A stretch of DNA of 64,000 nucleotides from an uncultured Alphaproteobacteria bacterium (GCA_963738105.1 CAVTWC010000028.1:971-64970), one strand, 5' to 3'. Shown: positions 19,789 through 31,880, numbered from the stretch's first letter. Program-made: numbers and translations. The notes: generated by a model not told the origin, from the sequence alone.

Positions 19789-19870
19789 ATGGCTTTCCCT
19801 CACACCTGAACGCCCGTCGGGCCAAACTGCCCAATGTTTATGCTTCGCGCATTTTAAGCAGCAAGCGACG

Positions 19871-19901
19871 TGCCAGTTTGCGAACACCTGCCAGTTTGCG
19901 A
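19871..19901. promoter_or_regulatory. Perfect 13-bp direct repeat TGCCAGTTTGCGA x2 (18-bp period) in the GST-phaZ divergent intergenic region
   Basis: The copies lie at 19871..19883 and 19889..19901, 65-95 nt upstream of the phaZ start. This is a candidate operator; no known consensus could be matched by eye. Confidence 0.35.
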
Positions 19902-19965: not shown

Positions 19966-21189
19966 ATGATGTCGATGTTGTATCAGGCCTATCAGAACCA
20001 CATGGACATGACTGCGCCATGGCGGACCGGGGCCGCATCGGCACTCAAATATCTCAACCTCGTGCCGCAAGGGGTCTCCGACAAACTGTTCGGACGGCTT
20101 GCCGCCGCCCTTGAATTGATCTCACGGACGTCGCTGACCTATACGCGCCCCGCCTACGGCATCGACAGCGTGATGGTCGGCAACCGCGAGTTGGAGGTCA
20201 CCGAGGAAGTCACCTACGCGACGCCGTTCGGCTCATTGCTGCACTTCAGGAAGGAAGGCGCGCCGGAGCAGCCGCGCATGCTGCTGGTGGCGCCGATGTC
20301 CGGCCACTTCGCGACGCTGCTGCGCGGCACGGTCAAGACGCTGCTGCAGGATCACGACGTCTACATCACCGACTGGCACAATCCGCGCGACATTCCGCTC
20401 GATCAGGGCAAGTTCGGTCTCGACGAATACACCGAGCACCTCATCACCTTCCTCGATCAATTGGGCCCGCGCGCGCATATGGTGGCGATCTGCCAGCCGT
20501 CGGTGTCGGCGCTTTCGGCCGCCGCGATCATGTCGGAGGACAATCACCCGGCGCGGCCGGCAACGCTGACCTTGATGGCCGGTCCGATCGATACCCGCAT
20601 CCAGCCGACCAAGGTCAACGAATTCGCCAAGAGCAAGCCGATCGAATGGTTCGAGAAGAACCTGATCAACTTTGTCCCTTTTCAATGCAAGGGCGCGTTC
20701 CGGAAGGTTTATCCCGGGTTCATCCAGCTCACCGCCTTCGTGTCGATGAACCTCGAGCGCCACATCAAGCAGCATGTCGACCTCGCCGATCATCTGGCCA
20801 AGGGCGAAACGCAAAAGGCCGACACCATCAAGACCTTCTACGACGAATATTTTGCGGTGATGGATCTGCCGGCGGAGTTTTACATCGAGACCATTCGTGA
20901 CGTGTTTCAAGAGCATCTGTTGCCGCTGGGCAAGCTGACCTGGCGCGGCCGCCCGGTGAACCCGGCCTCGATCAAACGCATGGGCCTGATGACGGTCGAA
21001 GGCGAAAAGGACGACATCTGCTCGATCGGCCAGACGCTGGCCGCGCAGGATCTCTGCACCGGCGTGCGCGCCTACCGCAAGGTGCACCACATGCAGGCCG
21101 GCGTCGGCCATTACGGCGTATTCTCCGGCAAGCGCTGGAACAACGAGATCTATCCGTTGTTACGGGATTTCGTGCACGTTAATTCGTGA
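19966..21189 (+). CDS. phaZ: Intracellular polyhydroxyalkanoate (PHB) depolymerase
   Basis: 407 aa. MLYQAYQNHMDMTAPWR... and the overall pattern (VAPMSGHFATLLRGTV, CQPSV, GEKDDICSIGQT, HYGVFSGKRW) match the PhaZ intracellular depolymerase family. The start could be 19966 or 19975. Confidence 0.85.
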   Translation: MMSMLYQAYQNHMDMTAPWRTGAASALKYLNLVPQGVSDKLFGRLAAALELISRTSLTYTRPAYGIDSVMVGNRELEVTEEVTYATPFGSLLHFRKEGAPEQPRMLLVAPMSGHFATLLRGTVKTLLQDHDVYITDWHNPRDIPLDQGKFGLDEYTEHLITFLDQLGPRAHMVAICQPSVSALSAAAIMSEDNHPARPATLTLMAGPIDTRIQPTKVNEFAKSKPIEWFEKNLINFVPFQCKGAFRKVYPGFIQLTAFVSMNLERHIKQHVDLADHLAKGETQKADTIKTFYDEYFAVMDLPAEFYIETIRDVFQEHLLPLGKLTWRGRPVNPASIKRMGLMTVEGEKDDICSIGQTLAAQDLCTGVRAYRKVHHMQAGVGHYGVFSGKRWNNEIYPLLRDFVHVNS

Positions 21190-23258: not shown

Positions 23259-24539
23259 CTACGCCGCCACTGCCTTTGCCGTATTCAGACGCTCGGCGAG
23301 ATGCTTCCCGACAAAGTCCGCGTCGCGGCCGACGCCGACGAAGCGGCCCGAGCCCCAGGTATAAAGCCAGGGCAGACCCAGCACATAGATGCCGTCCATC
23401 GAAGTCACGCCGCGTCTGTGGGTTGGGTAGCCCGCACCATCGAAGATCGGCAACTCGACCCATGACCAGTCCGAGCGGAACCCGGTGGTCCAGATGATGG
23501 CGCTGATGCCGGCCGCGGCCGGATCGAGCGTTGCGACCGGGGTTCCGGGTTGCCAGAGCGGCTCAAAATGCGGCTGTAACGGCGCCTCGATCGCGTTGCG
23601 CGCGATGTGTTCGTCGATCAGGCCGCAGATGCCGTTATAGACCTTGTCGGCATTGTCGAGATTTCTGGTGAGGTCGTCGGCGAATTCGAGCCGGCCATCC
23701 TGGATATCCTTCAGGCGCCCGTACAGCGACATCCCTTCCAGCGCGAATTTGCGCAGGTCGATATCCCGGCCGCCATCGCGCCCGGTCAGATAATGGTTCG
23801 CATTTTTGCGCACCTTCTCTTTCAGTCTGTGCTGATCGACCGGCAGATCGTACTGGCCGAGATCATCCAGCCATTCCACCGCCTCCCGGCCGCGATAAAC
23901 CCGCGGACAGCGTGGCGCGCTGCCGACGGCCAGATGCACCTTGCGCCCGGCGAGATGCAAATCCTCGGCGATCTGGCAGCCGGACTGGCCGCTGCCGATC
24001 ACAAGCACTTCACCTGGCGGCAATGCTTGCGGATTCCGATAGGCCGAGGAATGCAATTGCGTGACCGAGCCATCGAGACGGTCCGACATAAGCGGCACGT
24101 TGGGGACATGATAGCCGCTGACCGCTAGCACTACCGCATCCGCCGTCATCTCGCCGGCGCTGGTCTCGAGCGCAAAGCCGCCGCCCGCGCTTTGGCTGAG
24201 GCGGGTCACCGCGACGCCCTCCTTGATCGGCGCGGCGATATGCCTGGCGTAGCCTTCGACATAGCTGACGATTTCGTCGCGCAGCATAAAACCTTTGGGA
24301 TCGCTGCCCTGATAGGGATATCCGGGAAGCTGGCATTGCCAGTTCGGAGTCACCAGGCAGAACGCATCCCAGCGCTGCGTCTTCCAGGAATGCGCGATCT
24401 GGTTCTTCTCCAGGATGACATGATCGATGCCGGTCTGCTTGAGCTGATAGCTCATGGCAAGACCGGCCTGGCCGCCGCCGATCACGACGACGCTGACATG
24501 CGGGGGCAAGGTCTGGTGGGAAATCGAGGACGAGGTCAT
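23259..24539 (-). CDS. MSMEG_0569-family flavin-dependent oxidoreductase (Nit1C cluster, last gene)
   Basis: 426 aa with two dinucleotide motifs (VVIGGGQAGLAM and VIGSGQSGCQIAEDL). Position and sequence pattern match the flavin oxidoreductase of the MSMEG_0565-0572 cluster (family assignment from memory of the TIGR04046 description). Confidence 0.75.
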   Translation of the reverse strand: MTSSSISHQTLPPHVSVVVIGGGQAGLAMSYQLKQTGIDHVILEKNQIAHSWKTQRWDAFCLVTPNWQCQLPGYPYQGSDPKGFMLRDEIVSYVEGYARHIAAPIKEGVAVTRLSQSAGGGFALETSAGEMTADAVVLAVSGYHVPNVPLMSDRLDGSVTQLHSSAYRNPQALPPGEVLVIGSGQSGCQIAEDLHLAGRKVHLAVGSAPRCPRVYRGREAVEWLDDLGQYDLPVDQHRLKEKVRKNANHYLTGRDGGRDIDLRKFALEGMSLYGRLKDIQDGRLEFADDLTRNLDNADKVYNGICGLIDEHIARNAIEAPLQPHFEPLWQPGTPVATLDPAAAGISAIIWTTGFRSDWSWVELPIFDGAGYPTHRRGVTSMDGIYVLGLPWLYTWGSGRFVGVGRDADFVGKHLAERLNTAKAVAA

Positions 24540-24554
24540 GGCACTCTCCTTTTG

Positions 24555-24842
24555 TTATTCTTGAAACGACGTGACGGTCACAACGCCATCGGGCGTTGCA
24601 TGGAAACGTTCGGCGGCGGCCTCCAGGCGTGCGAGCTGGCCCATCGCGCGCGAACAGGCAAAGCCGTATTTCTCCCGCACCCGATCGCTGGCTGTTGTCA
24701 GCGCCGTACGGCTGCGCTGCATGAATTCGCCGACGGCATAGCTGGCGCCGACCGCGAGATGATCCTTGATCACCAGCGACGGCGAATAGCATTGCTCGGT
24801 CGCGCCATCCGGCCAGCGAATGTGGAACAGCATCTCAGGCAT
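24555..24842 (-). CDS. MSMEG_0570-family small protein (95 aa; Nit1C cluster)
   Basis: The sequence is MPEMLFHIRWPDGATEQCYSPSLVIKDHL.... Its start overlaps the glycosyltransferase stop by 8 nt. Size and position fit the small conserved cluster member. Confidence 0.65.
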   Translation of the reverse strand: MPEMLFHIRWPDGATEQCYSPSLVIKDHLAVGASYAVGEFMQRSRTALTTASDRVREKYGFACSRAMGQLARLEAAAERFHATPDGVVTVTSFQE

Positions 24843-26001
24843 GCTGCAGCTCCGTCATCCGCGCATACACCGGCAAATGCGCGCGTGCGGTGTTGCTCCA
24901 GTCATACTGGCGCGCGATCAGCGCGCCGCGCTGCGCCAGCCTGGAGCGCAGCGGCTCGGTCAGCACCATCGCCATCGCATTGGCGATCGAGCCGACATTG
25001 TGGGGATCGCACCAGACCACATCGTGCTCGTGGAGATATTCGGTGAACGGCGCGATCCGCGACGTGACCACCGGCGTGCCGCTCGCCATCGCTTCGAGAA
25101 CGACCAGCCCAAAGCCCTCCTTCACGGACGGAAACACCAGCGCATCCGCTAGCCGATACAGCGACGGCATTTCCGCATCCGGGATCGGGCCGAGGCAGCG
25201 CACCGCACGGTCGAGCACGCCGTTGGCCGCGAGCAAAGCCTCGAACTGACGCCGGTACGAGCTGTGGTCCAGCAGCGAAGCGCCGCCGGCAATCACGAGC
25301 TGCGCATCGCGGTGGATGGTCAGCACCTGCTGGAACGCTTCGAGAATCCGGATAGTGTTCTTGCGCTCCTCGATACCGCCGACCGCCAGCAGAATGTGGC
25401 TGCCATTGATGCCGTATTTGGCGCGCACCTCCTGATCGATGGTGCGCGACGCGCCGCTGAAGCGCAGCGTGTCGACGCCATTGCCGATCGCCGTGGAAGA
25501 CCGGCCGAACTCTGACAGGATCTGCTGCTGCCAGAGCATGCTGACGGTAAACAGTTCATCGGCCTCTACGATCGAGCGGGTCTGCCATTCGGCAAGGCGC
25601 GGGTCGCTGAAATGGTCGGTATGATGAACCGTGCGCGCGAAACAGCTGATCGTGCCGCGCTGCTTCAGCGTCGCCAGCGCGTTGCCGGAGATGGCATCCT
25701 GGGCATGAAAGACATCGAATTGGCGGTTCTCCGGGTTCTCAAAATGCCTGAGATAATCGGCGATGCGAACGCGCACCATCTCGACAACGTCCTTGCCGAC
25801 CGGTGATGCCATCACGGCTACCGCAGGCGATATCGGCGCCCGGAAGAATCCTTTGCCGCGGGCATCCGGCGCATGCACCACCGCTTCATGCCCAAGCCGT
25901 GTCAGGCTATCGGCGAGCTCGATCGCATGCACCACGCCGCCGCGCGGGTTGGTGGAATGTGCGAGGATGGCGATCCGCAGCGGCCGGGCATTCGCGCTCA
26001 T
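24835..26001 (-). CDS. MSMEG_0565-family glycosyltransferase (GT4-like; Nit1C cluster)
   Basis: 388 aa of GT-B/GT4 type (RIAILAHSTNPRGGVVHAIEL...FPSVKEGFGLVVLEAMASGTPVV). Its ATG overlaps the upstream stop (ATGA). Confidence 0.8.
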   Translation of the reverse strand: MSANARPLRIAILAHSTNPRGGVVHAIELADSLTRLGHEAVVHAPDARGKGFFRAPISPAVAVMASPVGKDVVEMVRVRIADYLRHFENPENRQFDVFHAQDAISGNALATLKQRGTISCFARTVHHTDHFSDPRLAEWQTRSIVEADELFTVSMLWQQQILSEFGRSSTAIGNGVDTLRFSGASRTIDQEVRAKYGINGSHILLAVGGIEERKNTIRILEAFQQVLTIHRDAQLVIAGGASLLDHSSYRRQFEALLAANGVLDRAVRCLGPIPDAEMPSLYRLADALVFPSVKEGFGLVVLEAMASGTPVVTSRIAPFTEYLHEHDVVWCDPHNVGSIANAMAMVLTEPLRSRLAQRGALIARQYDWSNTARAHLPVYARMTELQHA

Positions 26002-26996
26002 GCGACCGCCCCCATCGACAGACCTGTTCGGCTACCGGCGCCGATCAGCGGCTTGTCGGCAAAGTCCCAGATCGTCTCCGACGCAGTGCCGTCATTGATG
26101 CTGACACGGCTGCCAGGCATGACGGTGCCGATCGCGGCTGCCGCGACGCCGCGCGCCGCAAAACGCGCGATCGTCTCGGCGACATTCCAGGGTTTTACCG
26201 AGAGCAAATAGCCAAAGCTCGGGAACGTCAGCAGCCAGCGCTCCAACGCGACCCCGGCAGGTTTCGGAATGGCATTGATATCGATATCGACGGCGACGCC
26301 GGAGCATTCGGCCAGCATGACAGCGGTGCCGACGATGCCGCCCTGGCTGATGTCCTTGGCCGCGCGCGACAGGCCGGCCTCCGCGATCAGCGGCAACAGC
26401 TCGATATCGCCGCGCAGCCGCTGGTGCGGCGCGTCGGTCGCGGCCTCCCAGTTCGAAAACGGCTCGCGGTAGCGGCCGCGCAGATCGATCGCGGCGACCA
26501 AAGTGTCGCCGGGCTCGGCATCAAAGCTGGTCAGAAGCTTGTTGGCGCGGCCGAGAATCGCAACTGACAACTGGCCGCGATCGGTGCGGACGTTGGTATG
26601 GCCGCCGACGATCGGCACCGCATAGGCCTTGGCGGCGTCCTTCAGCCCGGCCAGCACTGGTGCTGCCTTGGCTTCGCCGTCGGCCCAGATCGCGTTGACC
26701 ACGGCCATCGGCCGCCCGCCCATCGCCGCGATGTCGGAGATATTGACCATGGCGCCGCACCAGCCTGCGAACCAGGGATCGCCCGCGACGAATTCATTCA
26801 TAAAACCTTCGATCGCGAACAGCAGATAGCCGTCGCCGTCGGGGATCGCGGCGCAGTCGTCACCGACCGGGATGACGTCGTCGCCGGACAGCCCCAACGA
26901 TTTTGCCACCGAGGCGATATCGCTTTTGGCCGCGATGCCACTGCTCCGACGCAAACGCTGCGCCAGCGCGGATATGGTGAGCGATCCCGTCATCAT
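25998..26996 (-). CDS. Sll0787-family AIR synthase-related (PurM-fold) protein (Nit1C cluster)
   Basis: This is the C-terminal 332 codons of track ORF 25998..27542, starting at ATG 26996 (MMTGSLTISALAQRL...). That ATG overlaps the true stop of the GNAT frame (TGA 26993..26995). PurM-type motifs seen: VGDDCAAIP and GGHTN. Confidence 0.8.
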   Translation of the reverse strand: MMTGSLTISALAQRLRRSSGIAAKSDIASVAKSLGLSGDDVIPVGDDCAAIPDGDGYLLFAIEGFMNEFVAGDPWFAGWCGAMVNISDIAAMGGRPMAVVNAIWADGEAKAAPVLAGLKDAAKAYAVPIVGGHTNVRTDRGQLSVAILGRANKLLTSFDAEPGDTLVAAIDLRGRYREPFSNWEAATDAPHQRLRGDIELLPLIAEAGLSRAAKDISQGGIVGTAVMLAECSGVAVDIDINAIPKPAGVALERWLLTFPSFGYLLSVKPWNVAETIARFAARGVAAAAIGTVMPGSRVSINDGTASETIWDFADKPLIGAGSRTGLSMGAVA

Positions 26997-27542
26997 GCGG
27001 CGAGCTTCGGCAGCGAGAGGAAGCCGATCTCGGGCTCCCGGAACGGCGGATAGAAATCGAGATCGGCCTGCATCATGTGATGCGGCTTGCCGTGGAGCTC
27101 GACCTCCTCCAGCGTGCGCCAATGCATGCGGTGAAACAGCTCGGCGTTCTGGCTCTGGATGTTGCCAAGGAACGTATGGCAACCGCGCGCATGCGCCGAG
27201 GCAACCGCGAGGCGGATCGAGCCCGGTACCGACGGCACCGAGGCGGCGATATTGCCCTGTCACCGCGAGCCGCGATCCCCACCACACGCCTGGATCTTCC
27301 GGATGCTGGTGAATGCGAACCGTTCCGACCACGGTGTCAGCGGCGACGCCGAACAGCGAAATCGCCACAATGGGTATAGCGACATCGTCGGTCGCATCGC
27401 GATCGTCGCCGTCGAACAATCCCTGTTCAACGCAAAACACCTGCCGGCGCAGCGCCGCCGCGCCGTTTTTCTCCCAGGCTTCGGTGGCAAACTTGATCTG
27501 ATAGGCGCTGGCCAGAAACGGCTTGAATGGTTCGAACATCAT
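26993..27542 (-). pseudogene. MSMEG_0567/Sll0786-family GNAT N-acetyltransferase with one apparent frameshift (Nit1C cluster)
   Basis: The N-terminal part is in the frame of track ORF 25998..27542 ([21 protein letters not shown]...RLGAVGTGL). The C-terminal part is in the frame of 26993..27238 (IRLAVASAHARGCHTFLGNIQSQNAELFHRMHW...). They join at about 27215-27222 (minus strand GGGCTCGATCCGC; GGGCTGATCCGC would read through). Length 550 nt = 3n+1. Confidence 0.75.
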
Positions 27543-28675
27543 GCCCGCATCCTTTTCTCATAAGTCGAGAGCGCCGAGCACGCGCCGCATTTGCCGCAGC
27601 CGGCCTTGATGCTGCTGGATTTCATCCCGGCATCGACCAGCATATCCGCGAGCGGCGAGAGGATGTCGTGCATGAACAACGGCGGCGGCGTCGGATGGCT
27701 CTCCAGCGGCGTACCCGCGATCGGTACGAACGGCACCACAAAGGGATAGACGCCGACGCCGACGAGACGCTCACAGATCGCAAGGATCTCTTCCTTGCTG
27801 TCGCCGAGGCCGGCGAGGATGTAGGTCGAGACCTGACCGCGGCCGAACACCGGCACCGCGGCTTCGAACGCCTTGAAGTAACGCTCCACCGACACCTGCG
27901 CCTTGCCGGGCATGATGCGGGCACGGACGCTTTCGGTGACGGCTTCAAGATGCATGCCGAGCGAGTCGATACCAGCGTCGCGCATGCGCTGGAACCAGAC
28001 GGCGTCATCCGGCGGTTCACACTGGCCCTGGATCGGCAGATCGACCGCGGCTTTGACCCCGATCGCGCTCTCGCACAGGATTTTTGCGCCACGGTCGCTG
28101 CCAGGCGGCGTGCCCGTGGTCATCACCATATGCGTGACGCCATCGAGCTCGATCGCAGCTCTCGCCACTTCGCCGAGTTGTTCAGGGGTCTTGCGTTCGA
28201 TGGTGCGACCGGCGGCAAGCGATTGGCCGATGGCGCAGAACTGGCAGGTCTTGGTGCGGCTCTGGTAGCGTATGCAGGTCTGCAGGATCGTGGTCGCCAG
28301 CACGTCGCGGCCGTGCAGGGTCGCGATCTTGGAATAGGGAATGCCATCGGCGGTCGAGCGTTCATAGAAGCGCGGCCGCAACTGGAATTTGACTTCGCCG
28401 ATCACAGCGCCGTCGCGGCTGACCTGGCTGCGGCCGAGGCTGTCGGGCTTTGCGACAATGTACGGGCTCTCGAATGCCGGCGCGTTGTGCACCGGGATCA
28501 TCACGGTCGCGCCGTCGATCGTCATCGGCATATGGTCGGACGGACCCGCACCGCCGCGGCGGCTGTCGCCGCCGGCCTTGGGATCAACGAGACGAACCCC
28601 GAAGGATTGCAACTCGTTGATCAGCTGCTCGGTCGGGATCGGCCTCGGCGTTTCGGAAGCCAGAATCGATTTCAT
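27539..28675 (-). CDS. MSMEG_0568-family radical SAM protein (Nit1C cluster)
   Basis: 378 aa. A Cys triad is seen as [15 protein letters not shown] (C-X9-C-X2-C, not the textbook CX3CX2C), with a second Cys cluster CGKCGAC at the C-terminus. The stop overlaps the GNAT start (ATGA). Confidence 0.75.
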
Positions 28676-29642
28676 CTGTTAATCCTCCGGTGGAGAAAGA
28701 CGATGCGGGGTGGGGTTTGCGCGTCGGGGCGGTTGGGCGATCGTCCCACAGCAGCGACAACAGTTCGGGCCGCGCGTAATGGCCCACCGAATCCATCATC
28801 CGCTTGCGCTTGACGATCAGTGCCATGTCGAGATCGGCGGTCAGGATGCCTTCGCCTGAGGTCAGCGGCGGCACGATGTGGTTGCCTTCCGGCGAGATGA
28901 TCGCGGTCATGCAACCGCCGTGCAGGCCGCGGCGCAGGCCTTCCTCGGGTGAAATCTTGGCGATCTGCTCTTCGGTCAGCCAGCCGGTGGCGTTGACGAC
29001 GAAGCATCCGCTTTCCAGCGCGTGGTGGCGGATCGTGACCTCGATCTGATCGGCGAAGATCTGCCCGACCAGCGAACCCGGAAACTGGGCGACGTGAATT
29101 TCCTCGTGCTGCGCCATCAGCGCGTAGCGAGCGAGCGGATTGTAATGCTCCCAGCAAGCCAGCGCGCCGATCCGGCCGACGGATGTATCCACCACCTTGA
29201 GCCCCGCGCCGTCGCCCTGCCCCCAGATCATGCGCTCGTGGAAGGTCGGTGTGATCTTGCGGCGCTTCAGCACCAACGTGCCGTCGGCGTTGAACACCAG
29301 TTGCGCATTATAGAGCGTGCCGTGGTCGCGCTCGTTGACGCCGAGCACGACCACGATGTTGTGCTTGCGCGCCGCCGCCGCCATCGCTTCGGTCACCGGG
29401 CCGGGAACGACGACCGCATTGTCGTAGAGATGAATGTGCTCGGCGCCAGAAAGCATCGGCGGGCGGATGAACGAGAAATAGGGATACCAGGGCACGAACG
29501 TCTCGGGGAACACCACAAGGCGCGCTCCCTTTGCCGCTGCTTCCGCCGTCGCGGCGAGGACGCGGTCAAGCGTCCCCGTCGGCGTATCGAGATCGGGCGC
29601 GATTTGCACCGCGGCCACCCTGATGATCTGCTTCTCGGCCAT
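28584..29642 (-). CDS. Nit6803/Sll0784-type nitrilase (carbon-nitrogen hydrolase; Nit1C cluster)
   Basis: 352 aa. The catalytic triad context is seen: FPETFVP (Glu), KRRKITP (Lys), GALACWEH (Cys). The 3' end overlaps the radical SAM gene by 92 nt, which is unusually long. Confidence 0.85.
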
Positions 29643-29672: not shown

Positions 29673-30155
29673 TCAGAGAGTCCACGTGTGGAGCATGAAG
29701 GCGTTTTCGTTGCGATGAAGCAGCGTGATGTCGAGCACATCGAGCGGGCTGATCGGAATGATGCCGGGGATCAGCGCCCCCTCGCCGTGGCCGTACAGCG
29801 CCTGCAGCGCGAAACGGCATGCATAGACCTTGCCGCCCTCGGCCATGAACTTCACCAGCGTGTTGTTGAAGTTCTGGTGGCCCGGAAACGCTTCGTCGCC
29901 GAGTTTCGGGAAACCGCGCTGCACGCCGAGCGTGACGCCGGGGCCGTACAGCAGGACCGAGGTTTCAAAACCTTTGCGCATCAGGCGCGTGGCCTGCAGC
30001 ATGTTGACGAAACCGATCGAGCCTTCGAACGCGACAGTATGAAATGTGACGAGCGCCTTTTCGCCGGGTTTGGCTTTGACGTCTTCGAAAACCTTCTGCT
30101 CGTAGTCGACGAGATAGTCGCCCTTCTGGTTGGCGGGCTTTGTGACGGCTGGCAT
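29673..30155 (-). CDS. MSMEG_0572/Sll0783-family nitrogen-starvation response protein (first gene of the Nit1C cluster)
   Basis: Track ORF 29673..30236. ATG 30155 has AAGGAG upstream. The sequence is [53 protein letters not shown].... Confidence 0.7.
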
Positions 30156-30202
30156 GTTGCACTCCTTGCGTTGGACCCGGTGGCCGGGCGCAACGGGGAA
30201 TA

Positions 30203-30219
30203 TTGCAACGGACGTGCCA
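30203..30219 (-). promoter_or_regulatory. Sigma-54 (RpoN) -24/-12 promoter in front of the Nit1C cluster
   Basis: The minus strand reads TGGCACGTCCGTTGCAA, i.e. TGGCACG-N4-TTGCA, with the GG and GC elements at canonical spacing. The -12 GC lies about 50 nt upstream of ATG 30155. Confidence 0.7.
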
Positions 30220-30497
30220 ATTGACGTTTTGCACAACCGATCATCAAAACAGTCAATTTGCTATCAATTATACATTCAATCTTGAATGGATTTCTGACGG
30301 GATCGAAAGTGCTGCCGCAAAAAAATGCGTAGAAATCTTGTGCGGCCTGCTTTTGCACTGAGCAGATTACACTTGATGGAACCAATCTGGCAGCATTGCT
30401 GACAGATCTTTACATCGCTGCCGAGACGTTGCATTAGGATAAACCGGTGCAACAATAATGCAGTCAATAATTGCCGCTTTCGGGATATTGATAAGTC

Positions 30498-31880
30498 ATG
30501 GCCGATTGGACCCCTGATCTCGCCACCAGCGACAAGCCGCGCTACCTCGCGATCGCCGATGCCATCGCCGACGATATCGGCGCCGGACGCTTGGCCGCCG
30601 GTGACCGGTTGCCGCCGCAACGAAAACTCGCCAAGCGTCTCAATGTGGATTTCACCACGGTGGCGCGCGGCTATGTCGAGGCGCAAAGGCGCGGCCTGAT
30701 CGAATCCAAGGTCGGACAAGGGACCTTCGTGCGCGACAGACCAAAGCCGCGGCGCAATCAACCAGCACCTGCGCCGCGTCCGGTCGATCTGTCGATGAAC
30801 CTGCCGCCGGAACCTGATGATCCCGAATTGATCGAGCGGATGCAGGCCGGCGTCGAATATGTTTCGCGCGATATTGTTTCGCTGTTGCGCTACCAGGGTT
30901 TTGGCGGCACCCAGGCCGACAAGGATGCGGCGTCGAGTTGGCTCGGCCGCCGCGCGCTGGTGCCGGCGCAGGAACGCATCTTCGTCTCGCCCGGCGCGCA
31001 TCCGGCGCTGCTCGGCATTCTCACCATCCTCGCCAAGCCGGGCGATGCCATCGTGTGTGAGGCCATCACCTATCCCGGCATCCGCTCGATCGCGGCGCAA
31101 CTGGGGCTAAAGCTGATCGGGCTGCCGATGGATGACGAGGGTATCGACGTCGACGCGCTCACCGACGCGTGCAGGAAGGCAAAGCCCAAGGCGCTGTATC
31201 TGAACCCGACCCTGCAGAATCCGACCACGCTGACGATCAGCGATCAACGACGCCGCGACATCGCCGCCGTCGCCCGCCGCTTCAAGCTGCCGATCGTCGA
31301 GGATGACGCGTACGGATTTATTCCAACGCATGGCCATGCCCCGTTTGCCGCGATTGCACCGGACCTGACCTGGCACGTCGCGGGCCTCGCCAAATGCATC
31401 GGCGCCGGTTTACGCGCGGCCTATGTCGTGGTGCCCGACACCCGCTCGACCTGGCCTTTCGCGGCAGCGCTTCGCGCCGCCACCGTGATGGCGTCGCCGT
31501 TCACGGTCGCACTGGTGACACGCTGGATCGAGGACGGTACCGCCGACACGCTGTTGCGCTTCATCCGCAGCGAGACGACGGCGCGGCAAAAGCTGGTCTC
31601 GGAAATCCTGCCGAAGGGCATCTACAAAAGCGATCCGCTGAGCTTCAACATCTGGCTCGAACTACCAGCGGCGTGGAATCGCGCCGCCTTTGTCGGGCAC
31701 ATGCGCTCGACCGCGATCGGCGTGGTCGCCAGCGACGCATTCACCGCCAGCGGCACGCCGCCGGAGGCAGTTCGGGTTTGCCTTGGCGGCCCGATCGGCC
31801 GCCCGCGATTGGCGGCGGGCCTGGAATACATGACGCACGCGCTGACCGAATCCCCGGCGCTGGCGTCGGCGTTTCTCTAA
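30498..31880 (+). CDS. MocR-type regulator (GntR HTH fused to a PLP aminotransferase-like domain)
   Basis: 460 aa. The N-terminal winged HTH (LPPQRKLAKRLNVDFTTVARGYVEAQRRGLIESKVGQGTFV) is followed by a fold-type-I aminotransferase-like domain. It is divergent from the Nit1C cluster. Confidence 0.85.
   Translation: MADWTPDLATSDKPRYLAIADAIADDIGAGRLAAGDRLPPQRKLAKRLNVDFTTVARGYVEAQRRGLIESKVGQGTFVRDRPKPRRNQPAPAPRPVDLSMNLPPEPDDPELIERMQAGVEYVSRDIVSLLRYQGFGGTQADKDAASSWLGRRALVPAQERIFVSPGAHPALLGILTILAKPGDAIVCEAITYPGIRSIAAQLGLKLIGLPMDDEGIDVDALTDACRKAKPKALYLNPTLQNPTTLTISDQRRRDIAAVARRFKLPIVEDDAYGFIPTHGHAPFAAIAPDLTWHVAGLAKCIGAGLRAAYVVVPDTRSTWPFAAALRAATVMASPFTVALVTRWIEDGTADTLLRFIRSETTARQKLVSEILPKGIYKSDPLSFNIWLELPAAWNRAAFVGHMRSTAIGVVASDAFTASGTPPEAVRVCLGGPIGRPRLAAGLEYMTHALTESPALASAFL

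Follow-up and report, generated by a model that had tools for sequence, protein, structure and literature searches.

A conserved, predicted sigma-54 promoter and a phased candidate MocR operator upstream of an alphaproteobacterial Nit1C cluster

Nit1C is a widespread gene cluster with an unsettled biochemical role, for which links with nitrogen starvation and with the assimilation of cyanide and nitriles have been drawn. The locus described here lies in a stretch of 64 000 nucleotides from an uncultured Alphaproteobacteria bacterium (GCA_963738105.1; the whole stretch is called the window) and raises the question of how such a cluster is switched on. An initial annotation had placed a sigma-54 (RpoN) promoter directly upstream of the cluster. 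We compared the locus with its relatives and with characterized systems, and the functional roles given below are drawn from these sequence comparisons. The analysis supplies candidate regulatory sites for MocR-linked Nit1C clusters, namely a conserved predicted sigma-54 promoter, a phased candidate MocR operator and candidate NtrC sites; conserved upstream sites had not been found in the first description of Nit1C (PMC1199592). As a promoter the element is conventional, and for Pseudomonas it had already been inferred that Nit1C is under the control of sigma-54. What is added is a conserved candidate MocR operator that is phased to the promoter, together with the consistent absence of a linked activator gene.

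The operon, its promoter element and the leader

The cluster consists of eight co-linear minus-strand genes running from 30155 down to 23259 (Table 1), each of which matches its family above the NCBIfam cut-off. The set by which membership of Nit1C was judged (Sll0783-like, Nit6803, radical SAM, GNAT, AIR synthase-like, MSMEG_0570 and flavin oxidoreductase, with or without the glycosyltransferase) is present in full. The GNAT gene is frameshifted: over 27017–27542 its alignment with the Klebsiella orthologue is split between two reading frames, and one relative differs by 1 nt. The 514-residue open reading frame at 25998–27542 is therefore a false fusion with the AIR synthase-like gene, and the frameshift could reflect either a real pseudogene or a sequencing error.

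Read on the minus strand, 30219 to 30203 is TGGCACGTCCGTTGCAA, as the initial annotation had stated, and it agrees with the consensus TGGCACG-N4-TTGCW at all 12 specified positions; the GG and GC dinucleotides, their invariant spacing and the extended consensus are all satisfied by the element at 30204–30219. The spacing of about 50 nt that had been given between the -12 GC (30206/30205) and the ATG at 30155 is 50 nt by our count. The exact consensus occurs twice in the window compared with 0.05 expected from dinucleotide shuffles (none of 100 shuffles gave two), and both sites are intergenic and oriented toward a gene. With up to two mismatches the pattern is not enriched in the window (eight found versus 12.7 expected), so that only perfect matches are informative. 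A sigma-70 scan of the region returned a single match, at 30267–30240, which is at chance level (1 versus 0.5 expected), and an Rfam search of 29900–30700 gave nothing meaningful. The window does not contain rpoN, as no RpoN-box motif is present in its six-frame translation. The closest genome is that of Bradyrhizobium sp. S69, with a first-gene product that is 99% identical, and rpoN genes have been reported in Bradyrhizobium strains (PMC13207237).

The other perfect consensus match, TGGCACGTCGCTTGCT, is also on the minus strand (19860–19875), in a gap of 177 bp that separates a glutathione S-transferase gene from a divergent PHA depolymerase gene, phaZ (19966–21189). It precedes the ATG of the transferase gene (19788) by 72 nt. 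No TGC-N11-GCA dyad of the kind discussed below is found upstream of this second site.

The evidence that carries the promoter assignment is its conservation. A genome scan for the first Nit1C gene yielded 80 loci (82–99% identity), 73 of them proteobacterial and seven cyanobacterial. The pattern TGGCA[CT]-N5-NTGC is found 54–110 nt upstream of the ATG of the nitB orthologue in 68 of the 73 proteobacterial loci, spanning more than 30 genera of the alpha, beta and gamma classes, with -12 variants of the element in two further loci. The loci with the element include Nitrobacteraceae, Rhizobiaceae, Beijerinckiaceae, Azospirillum, many Burkholderiales, Methyloversatilis and Ferrovum and, among the gammaproteobacteria, Hydrocarboniphaga and Solimonas. 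It is missing in all seven cyanobacterial loci; cyanobacteria are, to our knowledge, a phylum without sigma-54, and these loci thus serve as natural negative controls. The loose pattern has 104 occurrences, both strands counted, in the 1.2 Mb of related loci, and about two-thirds of them are the nitB-upstream sites. Between classes the intergenic DNA can be aligned at no more than a few motifs, so that retention of the element is best read as a result of selection. The related loci are non-independent samples, and the shuffle-based enrichments given here and below therefore overstate significance. With the element kept in proteobacterial and missing in cyanobacterial orthologous loci, the main claim of the initial annotation is strongly supported, and 30204–30219 is very probably a genuine and functional sigma-54 promoter of the Nit1C operon.

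The leader between the predicted transcription start and the Shine–Dalgarno sequence can be folded into a GC-rich hairpin (Table 1). Relatives have comparable hairpins of different sequence at the same place, with a mean z of -1.2 over 62 loci, a modest trend obtained by single-sequence folding. RNAalifold predicted no pairs for the leader hairpin, since the hairpins do not align by sequence. The hairpin may be a stabilizing 5' stem–loop.

Table 1. Coordinates in the window of the features at and around the Nit1C promoter
Feature	Position	Strand	Basis or remark
Predicted sigma-54 -24/-12 element TGGCACGTCCGTTGCA	30204–30219	-	GG 30218–30217, GC 30206–30205; consensus match and orthologous elements
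Predicted transcription start, about 12 nt downstream of the -12 GC	30191–30195 (near 30193)	-	Usual sigma-54 geometry
GC-rich leader hairpin CGTTGcgCCCGGccaCCGGGtcCAACG	30169–30195	-	MFE -16.5 kcal/mol, z = -2.8
Shine–Dalgarno sequence AAGGAG of the first Nit1C gene	30162–30167	-	Sequence
TGTGCAAAAC, conserved in alphaproteobacterial relatives	30226–30235	-	Alignment; near the -26 box position of beta/gamma loci
Proximal candidate MocR array	30239–30290	-	Inverted copy TCCATTCAA, then direct repeats ATTGAATGTA, ATTGATAGCA, ATTGACTGTT and TTGATGATC; 11-bp period
Candidate enhancer region	30313–30364	-	Three elements; weak match to enteric NtrC
CGCATTTTTTTGCGGCA	30313–30329	-	In candidate enhancer region
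19-bp dyad CGCACA-N7-TACGCA	30326–30344	-	In candidate enhancer region
Dyad TGCTCAGTGCAAAAGCA	30348–30364	-	Overlaps TGCAAAAGCAGGCCGCA (30341–30357)
Distal candidate MocR boxes ATTGACTGCA and TATTGTTGCA	30448–30468	-	30–50 bp from the mocR start codon
Divergent MocR-type regulator gene	30498–31880	+	GntR winged helix and aminotransferase-like domain
nitB-like, MSMEG_0572/Sll0783 family, first operon gene	29673–30155	-	E = 2e-84
Nit6803-family nitrilase	28584–29642	-	Domain/family profile match
MSMEG_0568-family radical SAM protein	27539–28675	-	Domain/family profile match
GNAT acetyltransferase, MSMEG_0567/Sll0786 family	26993–27542	-	Frameshifted near 27220–27277
sll0787-family AIR synthase-like protein	25998–26996	-	Family profile match
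MSMEG_0565-family glycosyltransferase	24835–26001	-	Family profile match
MSMEG_0570-family small protein	24555–24842	-	Family profile match
MSMEG_0569-family flavin-dependent oxidoreductase, last cluster gene	23259–24539	-	Family profile match

A divergent MocR gene and its box array

The gene that diverges from the cluster encodes a protein with Pfam GntR and Aminotran_1_2 domains that is also matched by MocR-like NCBIfam models. Its best curated match is the EhuR model, with 439 bits, below the cut-off of 480 bits. A divergent MocR gene is kept beside the cluster in most proteobacterial loci, at 39–93% identity. The shared intergenic region contains TTGAnnGCA-type repeats at 30239–30290 and 30448–30468, which were overlooked by the initial annotation and which we regard as the real candidate MocR operators. 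Alignments give a box consensus of ATTGAATGYA in alpha loci and of TTGATCGCA or TTGATTGCA in beta/gamma loci, and there are 2.7 copies of a strict form, TTG[AT][ATC][TC]G[CT]A, per locus compared with 0.047 in shuffles (about 57-fold). In alpha, beta and gamma loci alike the boxes start at -60, -48, -37 and -26 (±1 bp) from the T of TGGCAC, with an 11-bp period and nearly all in one orientation, and a second cluster adjoins the mocR start codon across loci.

The initial annotation had instead pointed to three other motifs as possible activator or MocR sites. All three are present on the plus strand, GTTTTGCACA at 30226–30235, GCTTTTGCAC at 30349–30358 and GGTGCA near 30446, and the proposal holds in part: the main MocR boxes were missed, but GGTGCA overlaps a distal box, 30226–30235 is probably a degenerate promoter-proximal MocR box rather than an activator site, and 30349–30358 alone falls inside an NtrC-like dyad.

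The MocR-linked clusters of Loktanella plas2 (L084) and Agrobacterium tumefaciens pAtA6 (L085) have boxes and lack the -24/-12 element. The boxes thus track MocR and not the promoter type; judged from these two loci, the promoter type is swapped and the operator kept. At pAtA6 the last box overlaps a sigma-70-like pair, TTGATT-16-TATCGT, at its -35 hexamer.

Several variants of this layout were seen among the relatives. In Rhizobium leguminosarum bv. trifolii (L034) and R. sophorae (L052), the boxes, a TGCATTCGATT(T/C)TTGCA dyad and the sigma-54 promoter are present with no MocR gene within 8 kb, and in one further locus (L054) the MocR gene is 4 kb away. In a sister clade of Bradyrhizobium, Afipia and Bosea (L005, L009, L014, L038, L062 and L067) the promoter is TGGCACATTGATTGCA, the spacer and -12 region of which form a perfect MocR-type box, TTGATTGCA; in this clade MocR could occlude the promoter directly. 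In beta/gamma loci a AAAAATTTTTT-type tract lies just upstream of the proximal boxes (for example in the Paraburkholderia loci L039–L042 and L049, and in L081), and AAAA-N1-3-TTTT is found in about ten of the 38 beta loci. Such a tract may bend the DNA intrinsically or bind a nucleoid protein.

Within the limited literature covered, our search found no report linking MocR to Nit1C or to a sigma-54 promoter, and the MocR-linked Nit1C architecture appears to be undescribed.

Candidate enhancer sites and the activator

It is established for this class of promoter that sigma-54 polymerase stays closed at the -24/-12 element until it is activated. The initial annotation had noted that the window encodes no enhancer-binding protein, and our searches agree: a six-frame translation of the window has neither a GAFTGA nor a GESGTGK (Walker A) motif, and the best tblastn match to a sigma-54 activator AAA+ domain has an E value of 1.7. 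Among the 80 related loci, none has an enhancer-binding protein gene within 8 kb of the first gene. The arrangement that marks NitA-type systems, an activator gene near the cluster, was thus found neither in the 64-kb window nor in the related loci. MocR was considered as a replacement for the enhancer-binding protein and was ruled out, as it has no AAA+ domain.

Candidate sites for an activator lie between the proximal and distal boxes (Table 1). Their match to the enteric NtrC consensus TGCACC-N5-GGTGCA is weak. Neither the window nor its closest relatives exceed 8/12, a value no better than that of shuffles (P = 0.6), and this consensus is not enriched in the alpha loci; a canonical NtrC site in the window is accordingly not claimed. 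A different spacing stands out in the alpha loci. The dyad TGC-N11-GCA is found in 13 of 22 loci compared with 0.6 under the null, with sites clustering at -145 to -138; relaxed CGC-N11-GCA dyads recur at -110, and spacings of N9, N12 and N14 are near the null. NtrC-core dyads of this form are enriched in the stretch 110–145 bp upstream of the -24 element. The window has TGCTCAGTGCAAAAGCA, the overlapping TGCAAAAGCAGGCCGCA and CGCATTTTTTTGCGGCA as their counterparts. In rhizobia, TGC-N11-GCA with an A/T-rich centre has been reported as the motif of NtrC (PMC10746234), and the Rhizobiaceae loci carry TGCATTCGATTTTTGCA. Of the 38 beta loci, 15 have GCAC-N7-GTGC, the canonical NtrC dyad (null 0.07), and Paraburkholderia has CGCACCCGGCTGGTGCG at a distance of about 150 bp, again upstream of the -24 element.

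One conserved element fits this pattern poorly. In the sister clade the most symmetric conserved element is TGCCTA-N7-TAGGCA, with a 19-bp spacing at odds with NtrC; its form in the window is CGCACA-N7-TACGCA. A metagenome scan for the 19-bp dyad 75–105 bp upstream of a sigma-54 core returned 45 hits, mostly unrelated, together with one Nit1C locus (L107), and revealed no regulon.

Further, indirect considerations favour NtrC. Both Mycobacterium smegmatis (PMC4617892) and Synechocystis (PMC3901256) induce Nit1C when nitrogen is limiting. Among the loci Rhodobacterales are represented by Loktanella alone, which lacks the sigma-54 promoter, and the NtrC of this order has been reported to lack the GAFTGA loop (bioRxiv 10.1101/2023.06.06.543975); the two together are in keeping with control by NtrC. 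Moreover, the module is carried on mobile plasmids and should therefore rely on a ubiquitous activator. The virulence plasmid pK2044 of Klebsiella pneumoniae NTUH-K2044 (L081, 150659–158110) carries the MocR gene, boxes, sigma-54 promoter and Nit1C, with the layout divergent MocR gene, boxes, four GGTGC half-sites, a AAAAATTTTTT tract and TGGCACGGCGCTTGCT; the first Nit1C gene matches 374 Klebsiella and 30 Escherichia plasmid records. For Burkholderia and rhizobia, our literature search gave no account of Nit1C being controlled by NtrC or RpoN. Taken together, the sites and their distribution incline us, by a little, to NtrC as the activator, and a link to NtrC, and hence the 'nitrogen starvation' label of the cluster, is plausible.

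A plasmid of Acinetobacter soli, pAS967-1-2 (L082), shows another arrangement. A NitA-type gene lies upstream of the first Nit1C gene, in 2.2 kb of unannotated sequence, and comprises a sensor region, an AAA+ domain with GAFTGA and a C-terminal DNA-binding part; it can be read only across three frames and is probably disrupted. Beside it are two ATGAAATTTCAT palindromes and a TTGGCACAGCTCTCGCA -24/-12 promoter, the latter upstream of nitB, and no MocR boxes are found at this locus.

Proposed mechanism, alternatives and related systems

In the model that we favour, sigma-54 RNA polymerase would bind 30204–30219 as a closed complex, the opening of which would need an AAA+ enhancer-binding protein encoded elsewhere, most likely the global nitrogen regulator NtrC. 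NtrC would bind TGC-N11-GCA-type dyads at about 30313–30364, some 120–170 bp upstream of the predicted start, and loop to the polymerase. The divergent MocR would bind TTGAnnGCA-type repeats at 30226–30290, between enhancer and promoter, and at 30448–30468, and would provide a pathway-specific input by blocking or shaping the activator–polymerase loop in response to a ligand. This input could be of either sign; EhuR and EnuR act as repressors, which hints at repression. By way of the distal boxes MocR would probably also regulate its own gene. The whole would work as a logic gate that requires both nitrogen limitation and a metabolite sensed by MocR. We judge this combination of sigma-54 polymerase, a trans-acting activator that is most likely NtrC and local MocR input to be the probable one overall.

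A stronger version of the MocR part can be put forward tentatively. IHF often sits between enhancer and promoter, where the MocR array lies here, and the IHF consensus WATCAANNNNTTR has no match anywhere in the window. MocR might then be an obligatory, stereospecific partner of the sigma-54 promoter, with its array in the usual place of IHF; the fixed helical phasing of the boxes is as expected of such a role. To give the activator access, the PLP-dependent sensor would bend the DNA; alternatively, it would hold the loop closed until ligand is bound. If this is true, the MocR/GabR family would gain its first member shown to gate an enhancer-dependent promoter, and a portable two-input switch would be travelling with Nit1C, on Klebsiella virulence plasmids among others.

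The alternatives to the favoured model concern mainly the identity of the activator. The promoter could be served by a dedicated NitA-like protein encoded elsewhere, with NtrC uninvolved. The Pseudomonas cluster comes with the sigma-54 activator NitA, and in P. fluorescens NCIMB 11764 nitA stands outside the cluster, three genes beyond nitH (PMC11049912); a NitA-type gene accompanies nitB and its promoter on the A. soli plasmid, and the conserved 19-bp dyad matches no regulator that could be named. The absence of such a gene within 8 kb in 80 loci nevertheless speaks against it, as do the consistent occupation by MocR of the slot beside nitB, the enrichment of canonical NtrC dyads in beta loci and the presence of the module on mobile Klebsiella and E. 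coli plasmids, which is hard to reconcile with an unlinked dedicated activator, and we consider this reading unlikely. It is similarly improbable that another resident enhancer-binding protein, answering for example to carbon, redox or stress signals, is at work and that the link to nitrogen is indirect. The weakness of the NtrC-like sites in the window would fit such a protein, the 19-bp dyad is unaccounted for, and the second consensus site at 19860–19875, with no TGC-N11-GCA dyad upstream, suggests that not every sigma-54 promoter here is of the NtrC type; the enrichment in alpha loci is, however, seen at the N11 spacing alone and at one position, canonical NtrC sites are present in beta/gamma relatives, and nitrogen starvation induces the cluster in other phyla, as cited above. 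That the -24/-12 match is unused and a sigma-70 promoter is controlled by MocR alone, as in classical MocR/GabR systems, is most improbable: the MocR-associated Loktanella and pAtA6 loci without the element, the sigma-70-like pair under the last pAtA6 box and the one weak match at 30267–30240 would suit it, but that match is at chance level and the element is kept in 68 of 73 loci amid otherwise unalignable intergenic DNA and is missing exactly in the cyanobacterial loci.

Under the favoured model, the ligand of MocR suggests a route to the inducer of Nit1C, and the presence of the module on K. pneumoniae virulence plasmids means that its regulation may matter beyond soil bacteria.

The closest known systems are the nit1C clusters of Pseudomonas (P. 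pseudoalcaligenes/oleovorans CECT 5344 and P. fluorescens NCIMB 11764), which share the cluster nitB–nitH and the inferred sigma-54 dependence and in which the gene for the sigma-54-dependent activator, nitA, flanks the cluster (PMC11049912, PMC7815647, PMC6368324). The NitA-type layout on the A. soli plasmid likewise has a -24/-12 element upstream of nitB. The present locus and the 80 related loci differ in having no linked activator gene, so that the activator must act in trans, and in having as divergent neighbour a MocR gene with candidate repeat operators. The proposed combination of global and local control has a counterpart in the PhutU promoter of P. fluorescens SBW25, where NtrC and CbrB activate and the local GntR-family regulator HutC represses (PMC8034625): both serve nitrogen-scavenging catabolic operons, and both would join global enhancer-binding proteins to a metabolite-sensing local regulator of the GntR superfamily. 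The local regulator here is of the MocR subfamily, with a PLP/aminotransferase-like sensor and with 11-bp-phased boxes at a fixed distance from the -24 element, an arrangement read from sequence. Enteric glnAp2-type promoters are similar in having a -24/-12 core with dyads about 100–150 bp upstream, and sites resembling TGCACC-N5-GGTGCA occur in Paraburkholderia and other beta loci; they differ in that the dyads of the window reach only 8/12, that an IHF consensus is missing and that the MocR array fills the space between enhancer and promoter. Finally, the regulator shares with the MocR/GabR family (GabR, PdxR and EhuR/EnuR) its domain architecture, its divergent orientation from the target and the repeated boxes in the shared intergenic region. 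The characterized members of this family act, as far as we know, at sigma-70-type promoters, whereas here the candidate boxes are coupled to a predicted sigma-54 promoter.
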